A stretch of DNA of 8,583 bases from a virus (Duplodnaviria; Heunggongvirae; Uroviricota; Caudoviricetes), in the IMG/VR virus record IMGVR_UViG_2671180417_000003, positions 1 through 8,583 of that record; one strand, 5' to 3'. Positions 1-8,583 of this stretch are shown piece by piece. Position 1 is the first letter of the stretch. Every line of letters starts with the position of its first letter. The position numbers were made by a program, and so were the translations under genes. The notes under the pieces are model-generated. The model was given only the letters and a program-made list of their open reading frames with translations. It was not told the origin of the DNA and did not search any database.

Positions 1-138
1 TCTGCTTATCTTCGATTCATGACAGCCAATCATCTTTGCCAGACCGCGCTGGGTAAGCGTTGACAGGTTGATGAGTAAATCAGTTTCAGCGCGATCAATT
101 TCTCGCTGTGATAGTTTGCTGTAACTTGTTTGTTCCAT
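1..138 (-). CDS. CII-like transcriptional activator, N-terminal part only (gene starts at 138 and continues past the window start)
   Basis: Own minus-strand translation from ATG 138..136 is open to position 1: MEQTSYSKLSQREIDRAETDLLINLSTLTQRGLAKMIGCHESKISR. HTH-like segment (GLAKMIGCHESKISR) resembles lambda CII/P22 C1 family; in-frame stop two codons upstream fixes the start; position just downstream of cro-like gene on same strand matches cII. Not in ORF track because no stop inside window. Confidence 0.5.
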   Translation of the reverse strand, partial: MEQTSYSKLSQREIDRAETDLLINLSTLTQRGLAKMIGCHESKISR

Positions 139-176
139 TTCTTAAGATTTCCAATAGTGAATAGCTAGTTGAAAGG

Positions 177-194
177 TATGCGTGGAAACGCATA
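177..194 (-). promoter_or_regulatory. Perfect inverted repeat TATGCG-N6-CGCATA in the cro-like/cII-like intergenic leader (possible tR1-like or leader RNA structure)
   Basis: Plus strand 177-194 tatgcgtggaaacgcata: 6-bp perfect stem, 6-nt loop, followed on the minus strand by CCTTTC; lies 40 nt upstream of the cII-like start. Confidence 0.3.
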
Positions 195-220
195 TGGCCT
201 TAGTTGGTCAGATATATTGG

Positions 221-269
221 GACTCGCTTTGTCAGCGACGTAGGACGAATGTCCATTGTGAAAAGAGCG
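221..269 (-). promoter_or_regulatory. nutR-like region: boxA-like CGCTCTTTT, small hairpin GGAC-ATTC-GTCC, then conserved element TACGTCGCTGACAAAGCG
   Basis: Minus-strand reading just after the cro-like stop: CGCTCTTTT (plus 261-269) matches the lambdoid boxA core CGCTCTT; the 18-mer (plus 225-242) is 17/18 identical to an element in the N leader at 3175-3192; both can form a 4-bp stem around the loop TGACAAA. Confidence 0.45.
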
Positions 270-276
270 GTGTTAC

Positions 277-510
277 TTATGCAGCCGATGCTCTACGCGA
301 TACGAACACTAGGTTTTCCTTTTTCACAGGTTTATAACCCGTGAAATTACGAGTAGCTTCTTCGATTGCATTCGCTTTATCAGGGGAAGCTCTTCGAAAT
401 CCATATGCAATCTGGTCAAGATAGCCAACTGAAGTTTTCGCTAATGCGGCGAGTCGCTTCCATTCCTCACTAGAAGCCTCTTTTCGCCAGCGTAGTAGTT
501 CATTACTCAT
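277..510 (-). CDS. Cro-like small HTH DNA-binding regulator (77 aa)
   Basis: ORF track 277..510; SD GGAGG (plus 516-520 as CCTCC) 5 nt before ATG; HTH-like segment WKRLAALAKTSVGYLDQIAYGFRRASPDKANAIEEAT; divergent from the CI-type repressor across an operator-bearing intergenic region, the canonical cro position. Confidence 0.6.
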   Translation of the reverse strand: MSNELLRWRKEASSEEWKRLAALAKTSVGYLDQIAYGFRRASPDKANAIEEATRNFTGYKPVKKENLVFVSRRASAA

Positions 511-537
511 TAGTGCCTCCGTTTATCACACAGAACA

Positions 538-566
538 ACTTTACCATTTTGATAAATAATCCGCAA
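538..566 (-). promoter_or_regulatory. PR-like promoter for the cro-like gene: -35 TTGCGG (566..561), 17-bp spacer, -10 TAAAGT (543..538)
   Basis: Read on minus strand: TTGCGG-attatttatcaaaatgg-TAAAGT. Same -10 hexamer, same 17-bp spacing and same ATTTATCA motif inside the spacer as the PL-like promoter at 3082-3110. Confidence 0.45.
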
Positions 567-605
567 TGTAAATTTATCATATTGCGTATTTATCCATTTG
601 CTAAA
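540..605. promoter_or_regulatory. OR-like operator cluster: 17-bp dyads TTTACCattttGATAAA (540-556) and TTTATCcatttGCTAAA (589-605) plus half-site TTTATC (573-578); putative leaderless PRM (-10 GAAAAT 612-617)
   Basis: Three copies of the TTTATC/GATAAA half-site between divergent cro-like and cI-like genes; dyads have 6-bp arms and 5-bp AT-rich centre (17 bp, typical lambdoid operator size); the same dyad occurs perfectly at 3092-3108. Confidence 0.5.
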
Positions 606-623
606 TAGAGGGAAAATTGTGAG

Positions 624-1328
624 ATGGAAAACAAAGATATTCGCAAATCGAATCTGGCGTTTTTGCTAGATGAGCATAAAAAAATCGCGGGTAACACTAA
701 TGCAAGCTTTGCCGATAAGCTTGGGGTTAGCCCTTCTCAACTCACGCAAGTCTCCGGTGAAAAAAGCACTCGAAACATAGGGGATAAACTAGCAAGAAAA
801 TTTGAAGCCGCGCTTGGGTTACCTAATGGGTGGCTTGATTTGGTACATGATGTAACACCAATTGCATCATGCTCAGATTCTTTAACTTTTGTCGGTCAGG
901 TAAGAAAAGGGTTAGTGCGCGTGGTTGGTGAGGCAATTCTTGGTGTTGATGGTGCCATCGAGATGACCGAAGAGCGCGATGGGTGGCTCAAAATTTATAG
1001 CGATGATCCAGATGCCTTTGGTCTTCGTGTGAAAGGAGACAGCATGTGGCCCAGAATAAAATCAGGAGAATATGTACTCATTGAGCCTAACACCAAAGTA
1101 TTCCCGGGTGATGAGGTGTTTGTCAGAACCGTTGAAGGACACAACATGATTAAGGTTCTTGGCTATGACAGAGATGGAGAATACCAATTTACAAGCATTA
1201 ACCAGGATCACAGGCCTATAACGTTGCCTTATCATCAAGTAGCAAAGGTGGAGTATGTAGCTGGTATTCTGAAGCAATCTCGCCATCTGGATGACATCGA
1301 GGCAAGGGAGTGGCTGAAAAGTTCGTGA
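624..1328 (+). CDS. cI: CI-type prophage repressor: N-terminal HTH plus C-terminal S24 (LexA-like) peptidase domain, 234 aa
   Basis: ORF track 624..1328; HTH-like SFADKLGVSPSQLTQV; S24 catalytic dyad signature GDSMWP (Ser140) with Lys177 37 residues downstream (LexA-like spacing); divergent from cro-like gene. No Ala-Gly pair in the linker; position-equivalent is Leu106-Gly107. Confidence 0.9.
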   Translation: MENKDIRKSNLAFLLDEHKKIAGNTNASFADKLGVSPSQLTQVSGEKSTRNIGDKLARKFEAALGLPNGWLDLVHDVTPIASCSDSLTFVGQVRKGLVRVVGEAILGVDGAIEMTEERDGWLKIYSDDPDAFGLRVKGDSMWPRIKSGEYVLIEPNTKVFPGDEVFVRTVEGHNMIKVLGYDRDGEYQFTSINQDHRPITLPYHQVAKVEYVAGILKQSRHLDDIEAREWLKSS

Positions 1329-1388
1329 CTTCATCGTCACATAGCTGGTAACCAGTGGCCAGAAGAAACGTTTGGGTGAGGAGGATAG

Positions 1389-1730
1389 ATGGCGTTCACT
1401 GACCTTGAATATCAAGCGGTCAAAAAAGAAGTTCACCAATTCATTGAAAGCATAAGGCCGCCTGAACATATCCGCAATGAACTGGATATTGTTTATAGCA
1501 TCAATGACCAAACGATAGATATCGGCGAACAGCGCCCCGTGTGGCAGGGCAACCCAGGTGAAACAAACATCCTGCCATCAGCAAGAATCAAGTACATACG
1601 TTCTCTGGATAGATGGAAAATCTATTGGATGCGGAAGGATATGAAATGGCATCAGTACAGTACTGAACTTTCGCTGACTGATGCGCTTGAGCTTGTGCGT
1701 GCTGACCCGGATTGCTGCTTCTTCGGATGA
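1389..1730 (+). CDS. Hypothetical protein (113 aa), first gene after the repressor; function unrecognised
   Basis: ORF track 1389..1730; strong SD GAGGAGG (1378-1384) 4 nt before ATG; same strand as cI, 60 bp downstream; GC content similar to phage backbone; ends CCFFG. Confidence 0.7.
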   Translation: MAFTDLEYQAVKKEVHQFIESIRPPEHIRNELDIVYSINDQTIDIGEQRPVWQGNPGETNILPSARIKYIRSLDRWKIYWMRKDMKWHQYSTELSLTDALELVRADPDCCFFG

Positions 1731-1800
1731 GTGAAGAGACGTTTGGATGATGGATGATCGCAGAGATGCTCGTAGAGCATACAGCGATGCAGGAGAATTT

Positions 1801-2235
1801 ATGGCACTTAATTTAGAAAGAATATCTTTTATAACCCCATTTGATAGCAGCGAAGAACCCAACCAACCGACGCTTAATTTTACATGCAATGAATTTCCTG
1901 CGCGGCTATCAATTGATTTCAGGGTTGGTATGATCGGGTTGAAACCAAATTCAAGATATAATTTGGGTATTATGGTAATCCCCGCGCACCTAATTATAAA
2001 AAAAGGTGAGGAAATTCAATTCCCTGACGGCTCTTCGGAATCAGTTTCACTTTTCATCGATACGAAAGATAGCCATTTTGAAACAGGGGTTGGCGGACAG
2101 GTAATAGTAACATTGAAAGAAATTAGGGTCCCAGCTAAAGGGCTGTATAGTGTTATAGGGATATTGCAAGATAATGAAGACCCTAAAAATGAACTTCATA
2201 AAAATGAATCATTTTTCACCGTAGAGCTATTATGA
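1801..2235 (+). CDS. Hypothetical soluble protein (144 aa from ATG 1801; alternative start 1747 gives 162 aa); AT-rich cargo gene
   Basis: ORF track 1747..2235; preferred start ATG 1801 has SD AGGAG (1791-1795) with 5-nt spacer; stop TGA overlaps next start (ATGA at 2232-2235); AT-rich composition; no recognisable catalytic motif. Confidence 0.7.
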   Translation: MALNLERISFITPFDSSEEPNQPTLNFTCNEFPARLSIDFRVGMIGLKPNSRYNLGIMVIPAHLIIKKGEEIQFPDGSSESVSLFIDTKDSHFETGVGGQVIVTLKEIRVPAKGLYSVIGILQDNEDPKNELHKNESFFTVELL

Positions 2236-2852
2236 GTGACGACAGTAATTTAAATAATCATGGAAAGCAAGACACCAACATATCTGAAAGCCGGAGGTTG
2301 AAGGTTGTTGGCGGTTCCGATTTTGAGGCTGAATTTGATAATTCTCCCACCAAGGTGCAAAATAATTACATAAAACCGCCACAAACGGAGGAAGAAGTGG
2401 GAACGATCAGCAGAGAGGAACTTGATGCTCGCTTAGCTGCTAATAAAGCAGAGATGGAGTCTATTGCTTCTTCCATTAGGGCTGACATGGCTCTATCTCG
2501 TGAAAGCGTTAATGTCCAATTTGCATCACTTAATGCAGCCATAAGCTCTCTATCGTCCAAGATCGATGGAAAGATGGATAGCGCTGCTGGCGATATAAAA
2601 GCAATTAATGGGAGATTCGAAGGAATTCAAGGACAAATAACAGGGGTTAATACCGCAATTAGTGGTGTTCAGTCGGGTATTTCTATACGATTAGCCATTT
2701 TTAGTGTCATTATCGCTGTAATAGTTGCGATTCCCGGGCTGGTATCAGCTTTAAAGTCAGACCACGTACCTTTGCAACAGCCTTCCACTTTGCAAGCGCC
2801 GCCACAAAATACCCAGCCAACAGACAACAAAAAAATCACTCCCCAGCATTAA
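2232..2852 (+). CDS. Hypothetical single-pass membrane protein (206 aa) with long Ser/Ala/Ile/Gly-rich helical N-terminal region, one TM helix, Pro/Gln-rich C-tail
   Basis: ORF track 2232..2852; ATGA overlap with upstream gene; hydrophobic stretch IRLAIFSVIIAVIVAIPGLVSAL (about residues 152-174); C-tail KSDHVPLQQPSTLQAPPQNTQPTDNKKITPQH; AT-rich; followed directly by an intrinsic terminator. Confidence 0.75.
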   Translation: MSDDSNLNNHGKQDTNISESRRLKVVGGSDFEAEFDNSPTKVQNNYIKPPQTEEEVGTISREELDARLAANKAEMESIASSIRADMALSRESVNVQFASLNAAISSLSSKIDGKMDSAAGDIKAINGRFEGIQGQITGVNTAISGVQSGISIRLAIFSVIIAVIVAIPGLVSALKSDHVPLQQPSTLQAPPQNTQPTDNKKITPQH

Positions 2853-2858
2853 CGCATT

Positions 2859-2887
2859 AACCCGGCCTCAGCGCCGGGTTTTCTTTG
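2859..2887 (+). terminator. Rho-independent terminator closing the cI-downstream operon
   Basis: AACCCGGC-ctca gc-GCCGGGTT stem (GC-rich, 6-8 bp; 2859-2880) followed by TTTTCTTTG, 7 nt after the stop codon of the membrane-protein gene. Confidence 0.7.
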
Positions 2888-2993
2888 CCTCACGATCCCC
2901 ACACCTAAAAACACATAACCAATTGTATTTGTTGAAAAATAAATAGATACAACTTGCTAAACAACGCAATCCAGATCTCCCTCAAATCTCTTT

Positions 2994-3110
2994 ATTTATC
3001 CTGTCGAATTCCTACAACAAAATAAAACACCATAAGAATCAATACGATATTTGAAAACCAAGAGAATTTATCATTTTGCTATTGCCATTAATTTATCATT
3101 CCGATAAAGT
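2994..3110 (+). promoter_or_regulatory. PL/OL-like region: -35 TTGCCA (3082-3087), 17-bp spacer, -10 TAAAGT (3105-3110); perfect 17-bp operator dyad TTTATCattccGATAAA (3092-3108) plus upstream half-sites at 3067-3072 and 2995-3000
   Basis: Same half-site family (TTTATC/GATAAA) and same promoter hexamers/spacing as the OR/PR-like region at 538-605; shared 10-11-mers AATTTATCAT(T) at 3065-3075, 3090-3100 and 571-580, and TATTTATCC at 2993-3001 and 587-595; positioned about 250 nt upstream of the N-like gene. Confidence 0.5.
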
Positions 3111-3158
3111 TCACCCATCAGCAGGACGCACTACTCACCAGGGCGGTGAATATACAAC

Positions 3159-3193
3159 GATTCGAATATGAATCTACGGCGCTGACAAAGCGC
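3159..3193 (+). promoter_or_regulatory. nutL-like element in the N leader: hairpin GATTC-GAATAT-GAATC followed by TACGGCGCTGACAAAGCGC
   Basis: 18-mer 3175-3192 is 17/18 identical to the minus-strand element at 225-242 in the cro/cII intergenic region; stems GCGC/GCGC here versus TCGC/GCGA there (compensatory change) around identical loop TGACAAA; both are preceded by a small hairpin. Confidence 0.4.
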
Positions 3194-3358
3194 AATAACC
3201 AAAGTGAACTTTGGGGTGTGGTGAAGGGTTCATGGACGGGAATATGTCGCACGTAAAGCGGCGAGGCCTGCGGGACTATTGCCGAATTGAAGTAGGCCGA
3301 AACAGGTCGAAATGGGTCTCCCACCTACCACACCACCAAAGTTCATCAGGAGGTCTAT

Positions 3359-3742
3359 ATGACACGCAGAACTCAGTTCAAAGGCAATTCACGTTCTCGT
3401 CGTCGTGAGCGTTTAAAGGTAAAGGCATTAGCTAACGGCGTACTGGCCCGCGAAGAAGCAATAAGTTCAGAAGTATTACACCGCCCTACTCTAAGCAGAG
3501 CGCAGATTCAGGCTAAAGGTACTCACGAAACGCCTGAGCGCATAGAAGACGCTAAGCCAATTAAGTTCATGGCACAGGACGTGATCTGGCAACAGAAAGA
3601 ATACAGACGCAATCTGGAGCGAGCGGCCATTGTGTACGCGAATGAGTTTGGACATAAGCAACCAGAAACTGGTGTATGTCTTCCAAACGTAGCTCTTTAC
3701 GCGGCAGGCTACCGGAAATCAAAACAACTGACAGCAAGATGA
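3359..3742 (+). CDS. N: N-type transcription antiterminator (127 aa), Stx-phage/933W-like by recollection, with N-terminal arginine-rich motif
   Basis: ORF track 3359..3742; SD AGGAGG (3348-3353) 5 nt before ATG; N-terminus MTRRTQFKGNSRSRRRERLKVKALANG is a classic arginine-rich RNA-binding motif; first gene after the PL-like promoter and long structured leader. Confidence 0.75.
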   Translation: MTRRTQFKGNSRSRRRERLKVKALANGVLAREEAISSEVLHRPTLSRAQIQAKGTHETPERIEDAKPIKFMAQDVIWQQKEYRRNLERAAIVYANEFGHKQPETGVCLPNVALYAAGYRKSKQLTAR

Positions 3743-3803
3743 CTTGTGTTGGTCGCCAGAAAATGAAATTAGGCAGCAAACCACTTATTTGAGAGGAATT
3801 AAT

Positions 3804-4427
3804 ATGTCATCAATCCGCTTAACTACGAGAATGAAAGAGGAAATCGCTCGTAACGCTTTAATTAAGTCCGGGGTGTTCACTGAACTTGAAGAAGTAACAA
3901 AGTTAAAGAACCAGCTTGCACTTGACGCCAGAGTTATTGCGTTTGGCGGTAAAAAGAAAACTGAGGAAGTGGATCAGCTATCATCCAAGTTGGTAGCTAT
4001 AAGTGAAGAACTTGGAAAGATGGGATGTTCATTTTACTCATACGATGTTAGTTCTACTTCAATTTATCTGACTGTATCTGGCAGAAGGGTTGGATGGCAT
4101 TCATATGGGAAAGACGGCAACGGCAAAGATATATTGCTCCCTACTCCGATCAAAGATAAATGCATGTTTGACGCAGAACACGAAATAACAAAAAGGTTTG
4201 ATGAAATCTGCGCATTGCAACAAAAACTTGAAGCCAAGAAAAAGGATATCGAATCAAATGTATGGGCTGCTTTGAACTCAGTCACAACAGTTAAGCGACT
4301 TATTGAAGTTTGGCCTGAAAGCAAAGAATTGCTACCAAAAGAAGCAGATAAAGCAAGTACAGCACTTCCTGCTTTACGGGTAGAAGATTTGAATAAGATG
4401 ATTGGACTTCCTTCCGAGGCCGCATAG
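3804..4427 (+). CDS. Hypothetical protein (208 aa from ATG 3804), AT-rich accessory gene in the N-to-cIII slot
   Basis: ORF track 3744..4427 uses a TTG start; ATG 3804 preferred because of SD GAGAGGA (3791-3797) with 6-nt spacer; hydrophilic, Lys/Glu-rich with predicted coiled-coil-like segments; stop lies inside a terminator hairpin. Confidence 0.7.
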   Translation: MSSIRLTTRMKEEIARNALIKSGVFTELEEVTKLKNQLALDARVIAFGGKKKTEEVDQLSSKLVAISEELGKMGCSFYSYDVSSTSIYLTVSGRRVGWHSYGKDGNGKDILLPTPIKDKCMFDAEHEITKRFDEICALQQKLEAKKKDIESNVWAALNSVTTVKRLIEVWPESKELLPKEADKASTALPALRVEDLNKMIGLPSEAA

Positions 4428-4442
4428 TCGGCCTTTATTTTT
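4417..4442 (+). terminator. Rho-independent terminator (tL1-like) immediately after the 3804-4427 gene
   Basis: AGGCCG-catagt-CGGCCT 6-bp stem (4417-4434) followed by TTATTTTT (4435-4442); stop codon TAG sits in the loop. Confidence 0.65.
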
Positions 4443-4471
4443 GGCATAAACAACAGAATAAATACTGCACT

Positions 4472-4499
4472 GTGTATTCATTCCAACGAGTGAATACAC
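4472..4499. repeat. Perfect 9-bp inverted repeat GTGTATTCA-N10-TGAATACAC
   Basis: Seen directly at 4472-4480 and 4491-4499; no T-tract after it, so more likely a protein-binding dyad or RNA processing structure than a terminator. Confidence 0.4.
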
Positions 4500-4561
4500 G
4501 GAGCAATGTCGCTCGTAACTAAACAGGAGCCGACTTGTTCTGATTATTGGAAATCTTCTTT

Positions 4562-4586
4562 GCCCTCCAGTGTGAGGGCCTTTTTA
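4562..4586 (+). terminator. Rho-independent terminator (tL2-like) upstream of cIII
   Basis: GCCCTC-cagtgt-GAGGGC stem (4562-4579) followed by CTTTTTA; a second weaker hairpin AACGC-N10-GCGTT plus TTTTCG follows at about 4600-4623. Confidence 0.6.
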
Positions 4587-4648
4587 TATGCATACCAATA
4601 ACGCTTCACTCGAGGCGTTTTTCGTTATGTATAAATAAGGAGCACACC

Positions 4649-4813
4649 ATGCAATATGCCATTGCAGGGTGGCCTGTTGCTGGCTGCCCTTCCGAATCTT
4701 TACTTGAACGAATCACCCGTAAATTACGTGACGGATGGAAACGCCTTATCGACATACTTAATCAGCCAGGAGTCCCAAAGAATGGATCAAACACTTATGG
4801 CTATCCAGACTAA
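4649..4813 (+). CDS. cIII: CIII (54 aa), FtsH inhibitor that stabilises CII
   Basis: Translation [54 protein letters not shown] matches lambda CIII as I recall it; SD TAAGGAG (4636-4642) 6 nt before ATG 4649; the ORF-track entry 4547..4813 is an artefactual N-terminal extension through the terminator. Confidence 0.85.
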   Translation: MQYAIAGWPVAGCPSESLLERITRKLRDGWKRLIDILNQPGVPKNGSNTYGYPD

Positions 4814-4925
4814 ATTCACTATCGCCACTTTTATTGGCGATGAAAAGATGTTTCGTGAAGCCGTCGACGCTTATAAAAAATGGATATTAATACTGAAACT
4901 GAGATCAAGCAAAAGCATTCACTAA
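4782..4925 (+). CDS. kil: Kil (47 aa), host cell-division inhibitor
   Basis: [47 protein letters not shown] matches lambda Kil from memory; 32-nt overlap with cIII and 46-nt overlap with the gam long-form start, as in lambda; ORF-track 4656..4925 is an upstream extension. Confidence 0.75.
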
Positions 4926-4998
4926 CCCCTTTCCTGTTTTCCTAATCAGCCCGGCATTTCGCGGGCGATATTTTCACAGCTATTTCAGGAGTTCGGCC

Positions 4999-5295
4999 AT
5001 GAACGCTTATTACATTCAGGATCGTCTTGAGGCTCAGAGCTGGGCGCGTCACTACCAGCAGATAGCCCGTGAAGAGAAAGAGGCAGAACTGGCAGACGAC
5101 ATGGAAAAAGGCCTGCCCCAGCACCTGTTTGAATCGCTATGCATCGGTCATTTGCAACGCCACGGGGCCAGCAAAAAAGCCATTACCCGTGCGTTTGATG
5201 ACGATGTTGAGTTTCAGGAGCGCATGGCAGAACACATCCGGTACATGGTTGAAACCATTGCTCACCATCAGGTTGATATTGATTCAGAGGTATAA
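4999..5295 (+). CDS. gam: Gam, short form (98 aa), RecBCD inhibitor
   Basis: ORF track 4999..5295; near-identical to lambda Gam C-terminal 98 residues from memory; SD AGGAG (4987-4991). The upstream long-form start (ATG 4880) is in a different frame here, see findings. Confidence 0.9.
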
Positions 5296-5300
5296 AACGG

Positions 5301-6086
5301 ATGAGTACAGCACTCGCAACGCTGGCAGGGAAGCTGGCTGAACGTGTCGGCATGGATTCTGTCGACCCACAGGAACTGATCACCACTCTTCGCCAGACGG
5401 CATTTAAAGGCGATGCCAGCGATGCGCAGTTCATCGCATTGTTGATCGTCGCCAACCAGTACGGCCTTAATCCGTGGATGAAAGAAATTTACGCCTTCCC
5501 TGATAAGCAGAACGGCATCGTTCCGGTGGTGGGCGTTGATGGCTGGTCCCGCATCATCAATGAAAACCAGCATTTTGATGGCATGGACTTTGAGCAGGAC
5601 AATGAATCCTGTACATGCCGGATTTACCGCAAGGACCGTAATCATCCGATCTGCGTTACCGAATGGATGGATGAATGCCGCCGCGAACCATTCAAAACCC
5701 GCGAAGGCAGAGAAATCACGGGGCCGTGGCAGTCGCATCCTAAACGGATGTTACGGCATAAAGCTATGATTCAGTGTGCCCGTCTGGCCTTCGGATTTGC
5801 TGGTATCTATGACAAGGATGAAGCCGAGCGCATTGTCGAAAATACTGCATACACTGCAGAACGCCAGCCGGAACGCGACATCACTCCGGTTAACGATGAA
5901 ACCATGCAGGAGATTAACACTCTGCTAATCGCCCTGGATAAAACATGGGATGACGACTTATTGCCGCTCTGTTCCCAGATATTTCGCCGCGACATTCGCG
6001 CATCGTCAGAACTGACACAGGCCGAAGCAGTGAAAGCTCTTGGATTCCTGAAACAGAAAGCCACTGAGCAGAAGGTGGCAGCATGA
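5301..6086 (+). CDS. bet: Bet (Red-beta) single-strand annealing recombinase, 261 aa
   Basis: ORF track 5301..6086; sequence [88 protein letters not shown]... recognised as lambda Bet; followed by exo with ATGA overlap. Confidence 0.95.
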
Positions 6087-6763
6087 CACCGGACATTATC
6101 CTGCAGCGTACCGGGATCGACGTGAGAGCTGTCGAACAGGGGGATGATGCATGGCACAAATTACGGCTCGGCGTCATCACCGCTTCAGAAGTTCACAACG
6201 TGATAGCAAAGCCCCGCTCAGGAAAGAAGTGGCCTGACATGAAAATGTCCTACTTCCACACCCTGCTGGCTGAGGTTTGCACCGGTGTGGCTCCGGAAGT
6301 TAATGCTAAGGCGCTGGCCTGGGGAAAACAGTACGAGAACGACGCCAGAACCCTGTTTGAATTCACTTCCGGCGTGAATGTTACTGAATCCCCGATCATC
6401 TATCGCGACGAAAGTATGCGCACCGCCTGCTCTCCCGATGGTTTATGCAGTGACGGCAACGGCCTTGAGCTGAAATGCCCGTTTACCTCCCGGGATTTCA
6501 TGAAATTCCGGCTCGGTGGTTTCGAGGCCATAAAGTCGGCTTACATGGCCCAGGTGCAGTACAGCATGTGGGTGACGCGAAAAGATGCCTGGTACTTTGC
6601 CAACTATGACCCACGAATGAAGCGTGAAGGCCTGCATTATGTCGTGGTTGAGCGGGATGAAAATTACATGGCGAGTTTTGACGAGATGGTGCCGGAGTTC
6701 ATCGAAAAAATGGACGAGGCACTGGCTGAAATTGGTTTTGTATTTGGGGAGCAATGGCGATGA
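6083..6763 (+). CDS. exo: Exo (lambda exonuclease, Red-alpha), 226 aa
   Basis: ORF track 6083..6763; [69 protein letters not shown]... recognised as lambda Exo; ATGA start overlap with bet stop. Confidence 0.95.
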
Positions 6764-6942
6764 AGCATCCTCACGATAATATCCGCGTAGGCACGATCAC
6801 TTTCGTCTACTCCGTTACAAAGCGAGGCTGGGTATTTCCCGGCCTTTCTGTTATCCAAAATCCACTGAAAGCCCAGCGGCTGGCTGAGGAGATAAATAAT
6901 AAACGAGGGGCTGTATGCACAAAGCATCTCCTGTTGAGTTAA
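6760..6942 (+). CDS. Small protein (60 aa), lambda orf60a-like
   Basis: ATG 6760 overlaps exo stop (ATGA); [60 protein letters not shown]; ORF track gives 6754..6942 from an upstream in-frame ATG. Confidence 0.7.
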
Positions 6943-7106
6943 GAACGAGCATTGAGATGGCACATAGCCTTGCTCAAATTGGAGTCAGGTTTGTGCCAAT
7001 ATCAGTAGAAACAGACGAAGAATTTCATACGTTAGCCGCATCCCTTTCACAAAAGCTGGAAATGATGGTGGCGAAAGCAGAAGCAGATGAGAGAGACCAG
7101 GTATGA
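6915..7106 (+). CDS. Small protein (63 aa), lambda orf63-like
   Basis: ORF track 6915..7106; SD GAGGGG (6905-6910); overlaps preceding gene by 28 nt; sequence [63 protein letters not shown]. Confidence 0.7.
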   Translation: MHKASPVELRTSIEMAHSLAQIGVRFVPISVETDEEFHTLAASLSQKLEMMVAKAEADERDQV

Positions 7107-7186
7107 CAACCACTGAATGCATTCTTCTGGCAGCGGGCTTTATATTCTGTGTGCTTATGCTTGCCGACATGGGACTTGTTCAATGA
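7103..7186 (+). CDS. Candidate small hydrophobic peptide (27 aa) MTTTECILLAAGFIFCVLMLADMGLVQ
   Basis: Own translation; ATG 7103 overlaps the orf63-like stop (ATGA) and its stop overlaps the next start ATG 7183 (ATGA); hydrophobic core compatible with a single TM helix; not in ORF track (below size cutoff). Confidence 0.3.
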   Translation: MTTTECILLAAGFIFCVLMLADMGLVQ

Positions 7187-7398
7187 CACCTCAGCAGGAA
7201 AACGCCCTTCGCAGCATTGCCCGTAAGGCTAATTCTGAAATCAAAAAAGCCAGACAGCAGTTTCCGGATAAAAACGTCGATGACATTTGCCGTAGCGTAC
7301 TGAAGAAGCACCGCGAAACGGTAACGCTGATGGGATTCACACCGACTCACTTAAGTCTGGCAATCGGTATGTTAAACGGCGTCTTTAAGGAACGGTGA
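7183..7398 (+). CDS. Small protein (71 aa from ATG 7183), lambda orf61-like
   Basis: ORF track 7117..7398 starts at an ATG with no SD; ATG 7183 (MTPQQENALRSIARKANSEIKKARQQF...) is translationally coupled to the upstream small ORF; basic, hydrophilic. Confidence 0.6.
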   Translation: MTPQQENALRSIARKANSEIKKARQQFPDKNVDDICRSVLKKHRETVTLMGFTPTHLSLAIGMLNGVFKER

Positions 7399-7419
7399 AC
7401 ATGAAAAGCAAAATCATCA

Positions 7420-7444
7420 GGGAGCCACAGGCTCCTTTTTTATT
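7420..7444 (+). terminator. Rho-independent terminator after the orf61-like gene
   Basis: GGAGCC-aca-GGCTCC stem (7421-7435) followed by TTTTTT (7436-7441) and ATTATT. Confidence 0.55.
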
Positions 7445-7496
7445 ATTCGCATTCACCCTCAAGCGTATTAACCAACAATTCAGGGATTAATGAAAG

Positions 7497-7718
7497 ATGG
7501 CGGACATCATTGATTCAGCATCAGAAATTGAAGAATTACAGCGCAATACAGCAATAAAAATGCGTCGTCTGAACTACCAGACTATATCCGCCACTCATTG
7601 TTGCGAGTGTGGCGATCCGATAGATGAGCGGCGACGCCTGGCTGTTCGTGGATGCAGAGCTTGCGCCAGTTGCCAGCAGGATATTGAACTTATCAACAAA
7701 CAGAGAGGTGTGAAGTGA
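7497..7718 (+). CDS. TraR/DksA-family C4 zinc-finger protein (73 aa), lambda Orf73-like RNA polymerase secondary-channel binder
   Basis: ORF track 7497..7718; four-Cys motif C-C-E-C ... C-R-A-C-A-S-C (CCECGDPIDERRRLAVRGCRACASC) and size typical of TraR; position in exo-ea22 interval. Confidence 0.8.
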   Translation: MADIIDSASEIEELQRNTAIKMRRLNYQTISATHCCECGDPIDERRRLAVRGCRACASCQQDIELINKQRGVK

Positions 7719-7999
7719 ACATCAACACCACGATAACGATCGATACAGCCCTGAACACCGGCCTAGCGCTCCTTGGTTATTTCTACATCATGTTCTGCAG
7801 CGGACGATGGCTGTCACTGTTGTTCATGAAAAAATGGAATAAACGCCGTAAGCAGGAGCAACGCCAAAAGGCAATAGATGCATTTTTCGAAGCCTTCGGT
7901 ATTGACGGCATGGAACCAGGGGATCCAGCTCGCGCAATTAGCAGAGGGGGCGTAGTAATCCTTGTATACCGGAGTGAAGAGAAAAATGAGCAAGATTGA
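7715..7999 (+). CDS. Hypothetical small membrane protein (94 aa), GTG start overlapping upstream stop
   Basis: ORF track 7715..7999; GTG 7715 overlaps TGA of the TraR-like gene; SD AGAGAGG (7702-7708) 6 nt upstream; hydrophobic segment LNTGLALLGYFYIMFCSGRWLSLLF followed by basic KKWNKRRKQEQRQK. Confidence 0.5.
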   Translation: MNINTTITIDTALNTGLALLGYFYIMFCSGRWLSLLFMKKWNKRRKQEQRQKAIDAFFEAFGIDGMEPGDPARAISRGGVVILVYRSEEKNEQD

Positions 8000-8583
8000 C
8001 TATCAGGCACTGCGTGAAAAGGCAGAGAAAGCAACTAAAGGAAGCTACATCGTAGGGCATACATCTGTTAACCAGCACGGCAATTTAACAGGAGTTTTTG
8101 TTTGCCAAAAATGGAAAGGAGAACCCGGTGGCGTGATTGCGGAATGTCATGTTAACTGCCTGATTGAATCAGATGCTCAGGCTTATGCAAACGCTGAATT
8201 CATAGCAGAGGCTAACCCGGCTACCGTGCTGGCACTGCTGGATGAACAGGAAAGAAACCAGCAATACATCAAACGCCGTGACCAGGAGAACGAGGATATT
8301 GCGCTAACGGTAGGGAAGCTGCGTGTTGAGCTTGAAGCAGCAGAGAACAACCTTATTGATAGCGAATGCCATGTTGCTGAACTGGAAGAAGCACTACGCG
8401 ATAAGCAGGCGTTACTTGAAGCCTCAGAAAAGCGCAACGCAAAATTACAAAGCGAGAATGCATACATCCGCAACCGGTACAAAGAACTGGACCTATTAAT
8501 CGGGAAAAACATTCTGGTCATGCAGGCTGCCATTATCGAATGGCAGGCAACTGGCGACGCTAAGAGCGGACTAGCATGGATTT
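7986..8583 (+). CDS. Ea22-like protein, N-terminal 199 codons (runs off window end)
   Basis: Own translation from ATG 7986 is open to the window end: MSKIDYQALREKAEKATKGSYIVGHTSVNQHGNLTGVFVCQKWKGEPGGVIAECHVNCLIESDAQAYANAEFIAEANPATVLALLDEQERNQQYIKRRDQENEDIALTVGKLRVELEAAENNLIDSECHVAELEEALRDKQALLEASEKRNAKLQSENAYIRNRYKELDLLIGKNILVMQAAIIEWQATGDAKSGLAWI; coiled-coil-rich C-terminal part; N-terminus resembles Ea22-family proteins from memory. Missing from ORF track because no stop inside window. Confidence 0.7.
   Translation, partial: MSKIDYQALREKAEKATKGSYIVGHTSVNQHGNLTGVFVCQKWKGEPGGVIAECHVNCLIESDAQAYANAEFIAEANPATVLALLDEQERNQQYIKRRDQENEDIALTVGKLRVELEAAENNLIDSECHVAELEEALRDKQALLEASEKRNAKLQSENAYIRNRYKELDLLIGKNILVMQAAIIEWQATGDAKSGLAWI

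Follow-up and report, generated by a model that had tools for sequence, protein, structure and literature searches.

Two accessory cassettes stacked in the rex slot of a lambdoid Escherichia coli prophage: a DUF3024 gene and a candidate exclusion pair

The DNA considered here is an 8,583-nucleotide stretch of a lambdoid Escherichia coli prophage (IMG/VR record IMGVR_UViG_2671180417_000003, positions 1-8,583; "the window" below means this whole stretch), and within it the segment 1389-2887, which lies directly downstream of the gene for the CI repressor and carries three genes on the same strand. Flanking homology places this segment in the accessory slot of the repressor operon, the slot that holds rexA-rexB in lambda and L0084-L0083-stk-L0081 in phage 933W. 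The original prediction had treated the three genes as a single exclusion or defense module; instead, sequence comparison resolves them into two independent accessory cassettes that stand head to tail, are joined at relics of the cI 3' end and also occur apart. By the same comparison, cassette A consists of gene 1, and cassette B of the translationally coupled genes 2 and 3. Our reading as a whole is that the rex slot of this prophage holds two stacked cassettes transcribed from the promoter PRM, that cassette B would act as an exclusion or abortive-infection pair and that gene 1 would be a separate factor; we place the probability of that complete reading at about 0.45, that is, a little short of even.

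The proposal that the array occupies the rexA-rexB slot became stronger on comparison, as both flanks are homologous to lambda, the counterpart of genes 2-3 in phages HK542 and HK244 sits where rexAB does and the annotated maps of HK542, 933W and lambda concur on the position of the slot. The two boundaries that had been proposed, the cI stop codon (1326-1328) and an intrinsic terminator on the + strand (2859-2887), were both found at those positions. The terminator has an 8-bp stem with six GC pairs followed by a T run, with a folding energy of -17 kcal/mol (z = -3.6), and none of 200 shuffled sequences was as stable. Together with approximately 100 nucleotides downstream, it aligns with the sequences that follow lambda rexB, the HK542 pair and 933W L0081; it matches the terminator after lambda rexB and the one annotated in 933W as tM, which that annotation describes as the terminator of the pM transcript, located after L0081. 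It does lie just before the leftward promoter and operator, with a PL-like promoter at 3082-3110 and an operator-like copy in OL at 3065-3079.

The junctions of the cassettes are marked by an 18-mer, GAAGARACGTTTGGRTGA, that occurs twice in the window (1362-1379 and 1733-1750; no occurrences expected by chance). This relic is the end of a lambda-type cI (...QWPEETFG-stop), which is intact in HK542 and lambda. Copy 1 (GAAGAAACGTTTGGGTGA, + strand, reading as the lambda-type ...PEETFG and stop) lies just upstream of gene 1, and copy 2 (GAAGAGACGTTTGGATGA, + strand) lies at the junction of 933W-type and HK542-type homology: the 933W homology runs from inside cI to about 1769, and the HK542 homology begins at 1732. 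We distinguish two cassettes because gene 1 and genes 2-3 also occur separately, with homology to different phages, and since gene 1 is bracketed by direct repeats of the cI-end relic, the array is best read as two post-cI cassettes that recombined at a short shared sequence. This pattern suggests that such cassettes are exchanged by recombination at two places, the conserved end of cI and the common terminator.

The coding content of the array was largely as first described. Three open reading frames (ORFs) of 113, 144 and 206 amino acids (aa) are present on the + strand at 1389-1730, 1801-2235 and 2232-2852, and the last two do overlap by ATGA (2232-2235). All three are conserved across genera within the Enterobacterales, and the ratio of nonsynonymous to synonymous substitution rates (dN/dS) is 0.15-0.19 where it could be calculated, dS being saturated in most comparisons; we therefore take them to be real genes. 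The G+C content falls to 0.37-0.40 over 1800-2400. On the + strand, no other terminator-like site was found between cI and 2859, and the sequence fits a single operon, cI-gene 1-gene 2-gene 3, with no internal terminator-like site and one strong terminator after it. In favor of expression of the three genes from PRM, stk of 933W, a gene located downstream of the gene 1 orthologue, has been reported to share a transcript with cI (PMC3564112). The region 1329-2900 has an identical copy in a prophage of strain S1-IND-01-A, with typical lambdoid neighbors around it.

None of the three proteins had been assigned to a family in the original prediction. That holds for genes 2 and 3 to the extent that they fall only into PHROGs 5893 and 5820, both of unknown function, and it does not hold for gene 1 (1389-1730, + strand, 113 aa), which is a DUF3024 protein. 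Gene 1 matches Pfam DUF3024 (PF11225) over residues 4-113 (E = 2.4e-31; 108.7 bits against a cut-off of 24.9) as well as phrog_3467, and it is 98% identical in nucleotide sequence to 933W L0084, the first gene after cI in 933W and in many Shiga-toxin (Stx) phages. A PADLOC run, proposed at the outset as a check on a defense role, divided the array in the same way: gene 1 matched the candidate PDC-S43 (PDLC05018; E = 7.2e-42, residues 1-113 of a 115-position model), and genes 2 and 3 matched no system above threshold. The AlphaFold2 (AF2) model of gene 1 (predicted local distance difference test, pLDDT, 90.9) consists of a helix, a five-stranded sheet and a second helix, and a Kyte-Doolittle scan with a 19-residue window found no hydrophobic stretch. 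With no enzymatic domain, gene 1 has the look of a small binding protein; most likely it is a separate, small protein-binding factor, perhaps a defense candidate or else one that modulates the downstream effector.

Gene 1 is also by far the more widespread part of the array. A query with 1329-2900 matched 889 of 5426 complete E. coli genomes, mostly via the gene 1 part; the DUF3024 gene itself matched about 880 of the 5426, and its matches in the phage collection were mainly Shiga-toxin phages. Relatives of gene 1 that lack genes 2-3 occur in 933W, Erwinia, Rahnella and Yersinia. The Erwinia gene lies at a DinI-adjacent prophage end as part of the whole block of DUF3024, 153-aa, kinase and 47-aa genes; the Rahnella gene occupies such an end by itself; and that of Yersinia ruckeri adjoins smpB.

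Gene 2 (1801-2235, + strand) encodes a 144-aa protein equal to the 144-aa coding sequence AFH20417 of HK542. Both the RefSeq/PGAP annotation and the mechanical ORF list give it 162 aa (1747-2235), from an ATG at 1747 within the cI-end relic; we prefer the shorter form because its homologues, all of 141-153 aa, start at the position of the ATG at 1801 and because that ATG is preceded, 7 nucleotides upstream, by AGGAG. The protein matches PHROG 5893 over its full length in a hidden Markov model (HMM) search (E = 3.3e-50), and its family is small, with 12 clusters in a set of 5.8 billion proteins and some 17 stand-alone relatives in a profile search of 1.84 billion representatives, from which a few long matches were discarded as artefacts of repeats or of immunoglobulin (Ig) domains. 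No Pfam domains were found among the gene 2 relatives that were scanned. The structural model (pLDDT 70.7; predicted template modeling score, pTM, 0.65) shows seven strands in a beta-sandwich of the generic Ig, fibronectin type III or carbohydrate-binding module type. With neither a signal peptide nor a hydrophobic segment in its sequence, gene 2 is predicted to be soluble.

Gene 3 (2232-2852, + strand, 206 aa; equal to HK542 AFH20416) encodes the membrane protein of the pair and is a full-length match to PHROG 5820 (E = 3.6e-76). Its family comprises 28 clusters and is confined to the Enterobacterales. That it should be a single-pass membrane protein agrees with its hydropathy, which has a single, strongly hydrophobic stretch at residues ~152-174 (Kyte-Doolittle 19-residue mean of 2.7). 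An alignment of 19 homologues, read together with the heptad register, divides the protein into a hypervariable N-terminus (residues ~1-58), a heptad coiled coil (~60-150), the transmembrane (TM) segment (~152-174) and a Pro/Gln-rich C-terminal tail. The conserved helical region contains six I-x-G-x-x-x-x heptads, homologues differ there by insertions and deletions in units of seven, and the region continues straight into the TM helix. As about 150 residues precede the TM helix and no signal peptide was found, the N-terminus is likely cytoplasmic and the tail periplasmic. Most homologues share the conserved motif QPIIIQVPQ beyond the TM helix; in its place the E. coli/HK542 allele reads QPSTLQAPPQ, and 6 residues are deleted there in one IMG/VR variant (L036).

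Database echoes of gene 3 were all below significance: Baculo_PEP_C, the coiled coils of reovirus sigma-1 and influenza HA2, and the toxins MakE, SmhB and AhlB. We considered an alpha-pore-forming toxin of the ClyA type (MakA/MakE, SmhB/AhlB) and rejected it, as NCBIfam MakE scored 15.6 bits against a cut-off of 360 and PDB SmhB reached only E = 0.25 in the single-sequence search and E = 0.049 in the profile search; compositional similarity among coiled coils is the likelier source of these toxin-like matches. Neither single-sequence PDB searches with genes 1-3 nor a PDB profile search with gene 3 gave a significant match, and NCBIfam returned at most coiled-coil matches far below threshold. 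In PADLOC-DB v2, gene 2 matched nothing and gene 3 matched only LmuB (E = 0.016), through its coiled-coil stretch.

The gene 2-gene 3 pair is 99.1% identical in nucleotide sequence to that of HK542/HK244, with the homology starting at 1732, and was present in 51 of the 5426 complete E. coli genomes, always as a single chromosomal copy (none of the 51 places was on a plasmid). In four of the 51, the pair is broken, either by IS1 (NZ_CP063473.1 and NZ_CP031134.1) or by partial deletion (NZ_CP027459.1 and NZ_CP027445.1), and these broken copies may be a sign of host cost. A profile scan of IMG/VR, with contexts taken from chains of ORFs, gave 44 loci, 42 of them with the full gene. The gene next upstream of the pair or its relatives is a repressor in 34 of the 42 (by Pfam, S24 plus HTH_3, or HTH_3 alone), and contig look-ups placed the pair directly after a repressor in eight of nine distinct places. 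Look-ups in Citrobacter, Phytobacter, Cedecea, Salmonella, Leclercia, Pectobacterium and Yersinia gave the same layout, with one exception at a DinI-adjacent prophage end. Across loci, at least six repressor clusters precede the pair, and the full triple of genes 1, 2 and 3 stands behind five repressors: that of the window, 933W cI, lambda-like forms of 237 and 240 aa and a 245-aa S24 protein. At 16 of the 27 IMG/VR loci in the gene-2-family group, genes 2-3 have no gene 1 with them. These arrangements indicate, at the level of sequence, that the cassettes move among immunity types.

The same cargo also occurs outside the post-cI slot, at a second accessory site located beside dinI at the tail-fibre end of prophages. 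There, Erwinia aphidicola (L012, 5001-7130) carries the whole 933W-type block of DUF3024, 153-aa, kinase and 47-aa genes, and Yersinia enterocolitica (L010, 5695-6699) carries a gene 3 homologue with a short partner; the Rahnella locus is L013.

The partner upstream of gene 3 is of three types. Twenty-eight loci have a gene 2-type partner: the 27 of the gene-2-family group (L021-L047, 11 of them also with an upstream DUF3024 gene) and L061, where the partner is only distantly gene 2-like and no repressor was called. Nine loci have a 92-101-aa partner; the possibility that it is a diverged gene 2 was rejected, as the two are unrelated (hhalign E = 0.61). Three have a CxxC...CxxC partner of 112-120 aa, which follows a 253-aa S24 repressor, reads CQICG...CDHC and has no Pfam match (L048, 2982-3320; L050 and L051, 2980-3342). 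A 149-aa partner from Salmonella, compared with gene 2, reached hhalign E = 0.0023 at a probability of 13% and was assigned to none of the three types. Each type goes with its own gene 3 N-terminus: RLKV(V/I)GGSDF..FDNS with gene 2-type partners, RPYLRAVPNCGSGIDK with the CxxC partners and other sequences with the 92-101-aa partners. Partner type and gene 3 N-terminus thus co-vary in the alignments, as would be expected if the partner docks there, and we infer that genes 2 and 3 interact.

Several genes of this slot have known functions, since it is the site of RexAB, Stk, Hex and BstA (PMC3564112, PMC8585504, PMC7067206). These occupants make defense the leading hypothesis for the slot genes and, by analogy, a defense or exclusion role plausible. 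As a working hypothesis, cassette B would be a two-component exclusion or abortive-infection system in which gene 3 is the constant membrane effector, an oligomeric coiled coil whose TM helices would open or disturb the inner membrane, or else obstruct the entry of DNA. Gene 2 would be its exchangeable soluble partner, docking on the hypervariable N-terminus of gene 3 and either sensing a phage product or restraining gene 3. A broader version of this idea, that the gene 3 family represents a new, prophage-borne class of two-component systems for exclusion or abortive infection (a constant, tail-anchored coiled-coil membrane effector with a hypervariable docking segment, served by interchangeable soluble sensors of three partner types and exchanged between unrelated lambdoid immunity regions at the cI 3' end and the terminator tImm), is more speculative, and we regard it as rather unlikely in that complete form.

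A number of points weigh against an exclusion or abortive-infection pair in a PRM-transcribed array. Genes in this slot can have other roles, as Hex stabilizes lysogeny and RexA biases the switch. Transcription of genes 1-3 with cI from PRM in the lysogen, although likely, is deduced from the DNA sequence. Gene 3 has a single TM helix, and its sole echoes are insignificant ones to viral trimeric coiled coils and alpha-pore-forming toxins (E = 0.006-0.25); neither gene 2 nor gene 3 matches PADLOC-DB v2, Pfam or NCBIfam above threshold. PDC-S43 is a guilt-by-embedding prediction: PADLOC candidates are predicted through their recurrent embedding in known defense loci, and of eight other candidates put to the test in one study, four protected E. 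coli (bioRxiv 10.1101/2024.09.26.614923). In the literature searched, PDC-S43 occurs solely as an annotation and no paper was found with DUF3024 as a text term; likewise, in a search of partial coverage, we found no functional study of genes 2-3, their accessions or the HK542/HK244 genes.

Defense is not the sole hypothesis, because slot genes are also known to stabilize lysogeny, as in the case of 434 Hex (PMC3564112). At least one of the three proteins, most plausibly the small acidic gene 1, could act on the maintenance or induction of the prophage, with exclusion being secondary. The models would be 434 Hex, which blocks RecA-stimulated cleavage of the repressor, and lambda RexA, which biases the switch. 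Hex shares a transcript with the 434 repressor and reduces spontaneous induction approximately 30-fold (PMC3564112), and a preprint describes RexA and RexB as aiding the changeover from lysogenic growth to lytic growth (bioRxiv 10.1101/2021.04.19.439022). In E. coli phages, gene 1 always stands beside S24-type repressors, which would fit such a role, but it also occurs far from repressors, at DinI-adjacent prophage ends and by smpB. Genes 2-3 follow repressors both with and without the S24 autocleavage domain, so that a role specific to RecA and S24 does not fit them, and all three genes are dissimilar to Hex and RexA. We consider modulation of the switch improbable as the primary function of the array.

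Injection of phage DNA is the step with which HK97 gp15, P22 SieA and T4 Imm interfere, and gene 3 could belong with these proteins: its periplasmic tail or TM segment would hinder DNA injection without cell death, and gene 2 would serve as a factor for assembly or stability. That gene 3 is a membrane protein encoded in a repressor operon, and that most of its homologues conserve the periplasmic QPIIIQVPQ, would both agree with such a block, although the gene 3 of the window itself has QPSTLQAPPQ in place of the conserved motif and the conserved bulk of the protein, about 150 aa, is cytoplasmic. To our knowledge, the known entry blockers are single proteins, whereas gene 3 has a strictly linked cytoplasmic partner that co-varies with its cytoplasmic N-terminus. 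Membrane defense at the injection step is well documented (PMC13190303), but for this pair, superinfection exclusion by an entry block alone seems to us to have only a small chance of being correct.

Lysogenic conversion or addiction, with gene 3 as a membrane toxin and gene 2 as its neutralizer stabilizing the prophage, or with an envelope factor altering host physiology (stress tolerance, colonization), is similarly doubtful: a small soluble gene coupled to a small membrane-protein gene is a toxin-antitoxin-like layout too, the IS1-interrupted or deleted pairs in 4 of 51 E. coli genomes would fit a host cost and lambda lysogens also express the non-defense accessory genes lom and bor (PMC7067206), but the cassette is confined to prophages, where it sits at repressor loci and at one other accessory site, with none seen in plasmids or the chromosomal backbone, its partner swapping with matched N-termini resembles the diversification of a sensor more than a fixed toxin-antitoxin pair, and nothing was found to mark it as a secreted or surface-exposed virulence factor.

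The surroundings of the array are those of an immunity region. The whole window (8.6 kb) covers the early-left and immunity regions of the prophage, in the order cro-like gene, OR/PR-like region, cI, genes 1-3, terminator, OL/PL, N, a gene with an Nmad5 domain, cIII, bet and exo. The cro-like gene (277-510, - strand, 77 aa) is an ORF divergent from cI that stands at the cro position in the identical S1-IND-01-A prophage; it had no match in a Pfam scan. The OR region (537-605) holds operator-like repeats, the presumed PRM and a PR-like promoter site (604-576, - strand), and it shares inverted and direct repeats with the OL/PL region (3059-3112), in which the PL-like promoter reads TTGCCA-17-TAAAGT. 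Copies of the operator-like AATTTATCAT(A/T)TTGC are present in both OR (571-585) and OL (3065-3079). The repressor gene (624-1328, + strand, 234 aa; Peptidase_S24, E = 3.8e-16) is a hybrid, with its C-terminal 154 aa 95% identical to 933W cI by BLASTP and an unrelated N-terminal DNA-binding part; together with its own operator-like repeats, this implies a distinct, predicted immunity specificity. The N antiterminator gene (3359-3742, + strand; Pfam N_peptide, E = 2.2e-15) is the first gene of the PL operon and forms the right edge of the immunity region. The gene directly after it, at 3804-4427, has an Nmad5 domain in full length (PF18757, nucleotide modification associated domain 5; E = 3e-71) and falls into phrog_1965, a family of unknown function; HK542 carries a 207-aa gene at the equivalent place. 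As in lambda, the cIII thermoregulator RNA (Rfam RF01804, 88.5 bits) extends over the start of cIII; it lies at 4636-4694.

The segment between cI and N of lambdoid prophages is a known hotspot of exclusion genes expressed by the lysogen, and each characterized occupant has a different mechanism. The genes described here are already in public records of HK244, HK542 and 933W, the gene 2-gene 3 pair since the EF120457/8 immunity-region entries, and the slot is a recognized mosaic hotspot, so that candidate defense genes in it will not surprise a specialist. What is new is the explanation of cassette stacking by relics at the flanks, a gene 3 family delimited together with its three partner types and the N-termini that go with them, and the lack of any match of genes 2-3 to the models of PADLOC v2, Pfam or NCBIfam. 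If the pair protects, it would be a mechanistically new membrane-acting system with swappable partners, and it would offer a simple account of how cassettes transfer between immunity types. Given how common the DUF3024 gene is in E. coli genomes and that its phage matches are mainly Shiga-toxin phages, a role of gene 1 in defense or in the control of induction could bear on the biology of toxin phages. Should all three genes prove to be without phenotype, the array would remain a tidy case of mosaic stacking of accessory genes.

Among the known systems, 434 Hex and BstA of Salmonella phage BTP1 share with the array a position downstream of the repressor and the use of its promoter, and both give heterologous exclusion or abortive infection (PMC3564112; PMC8585504). 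Unlike genes 2-3, both are single proteins. BLASTP comparison with Hex gave, at best, E = 0.066 over 63 residues for gene 3 and E = 13 for gene 2, with no match for gene 1, and the BstA model had no match in the PADLOC scan of the window's proteins. SNIPE, a membrane nuclease with DUF4041 and GIY-YIG domains, was rejected as a relative, since its domains and topology differ.

Phages 933W, HK542 and HK244 each share one cassette with the window. In 933W, the gene 1 orthologue L0084 likewise comes right after cI and the array ends at the same terminator, but L0083-stk-L0081 stands where the window has genes 2-3, and the window has no kinase (there was no Pkinase match in any of its scanned proteins). 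The 933W Stk matches the PADLOC PD-T4-6 models (E = 1e-37) and is reported to abort HK97 infection (PMC3564112). In HK542 and HK244 (GenBank JQ086373 and EF120457/8), the pair follows a lambda-type cI in the place of rexAB and before the same terminator; these phages differ from the window in lacking gene 1, and both of their genes are annotated as hypothetical proteins.

The closest parallel in arrangement is lambda RexA-RexB, a system that excludes T4 rII and other phages with a loss of membrane potential. Both arrays fill the slot that opens at the cI 3' end and closes at the tImm terminator, on the same strand as cI and presumably on the same transcript, and in both a soluble protein is followed by a membrane protein, as in genes 2-3; the window has an extra first gene, that for DUF3024. 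The remark that this layout echoes Rex without any resemblance in sequence proved apt, as the layout and the translational coupling are real and the comparisons with RexA and RexB were negative. With hhalign, RexA, a 279-aa soluble sensor, gave E = 0.22 against the gene 2 profile and E = 0.67 against that of gene 1, and RexB gave E = 0.27 against that of gene 3. RexB has four TM helices. It is a polytopic inner-membrane protein of 144 aa, whereas gene 3, at 206 aa, is a coiled coil whose one TM helix is C-terminal. Because these direct profile comparisons are negative and the architecture of the membrane protein differs, genes 2-3 are best regarded, on present comparisons, as resembling RexA/RexB in logic rather than in membership.

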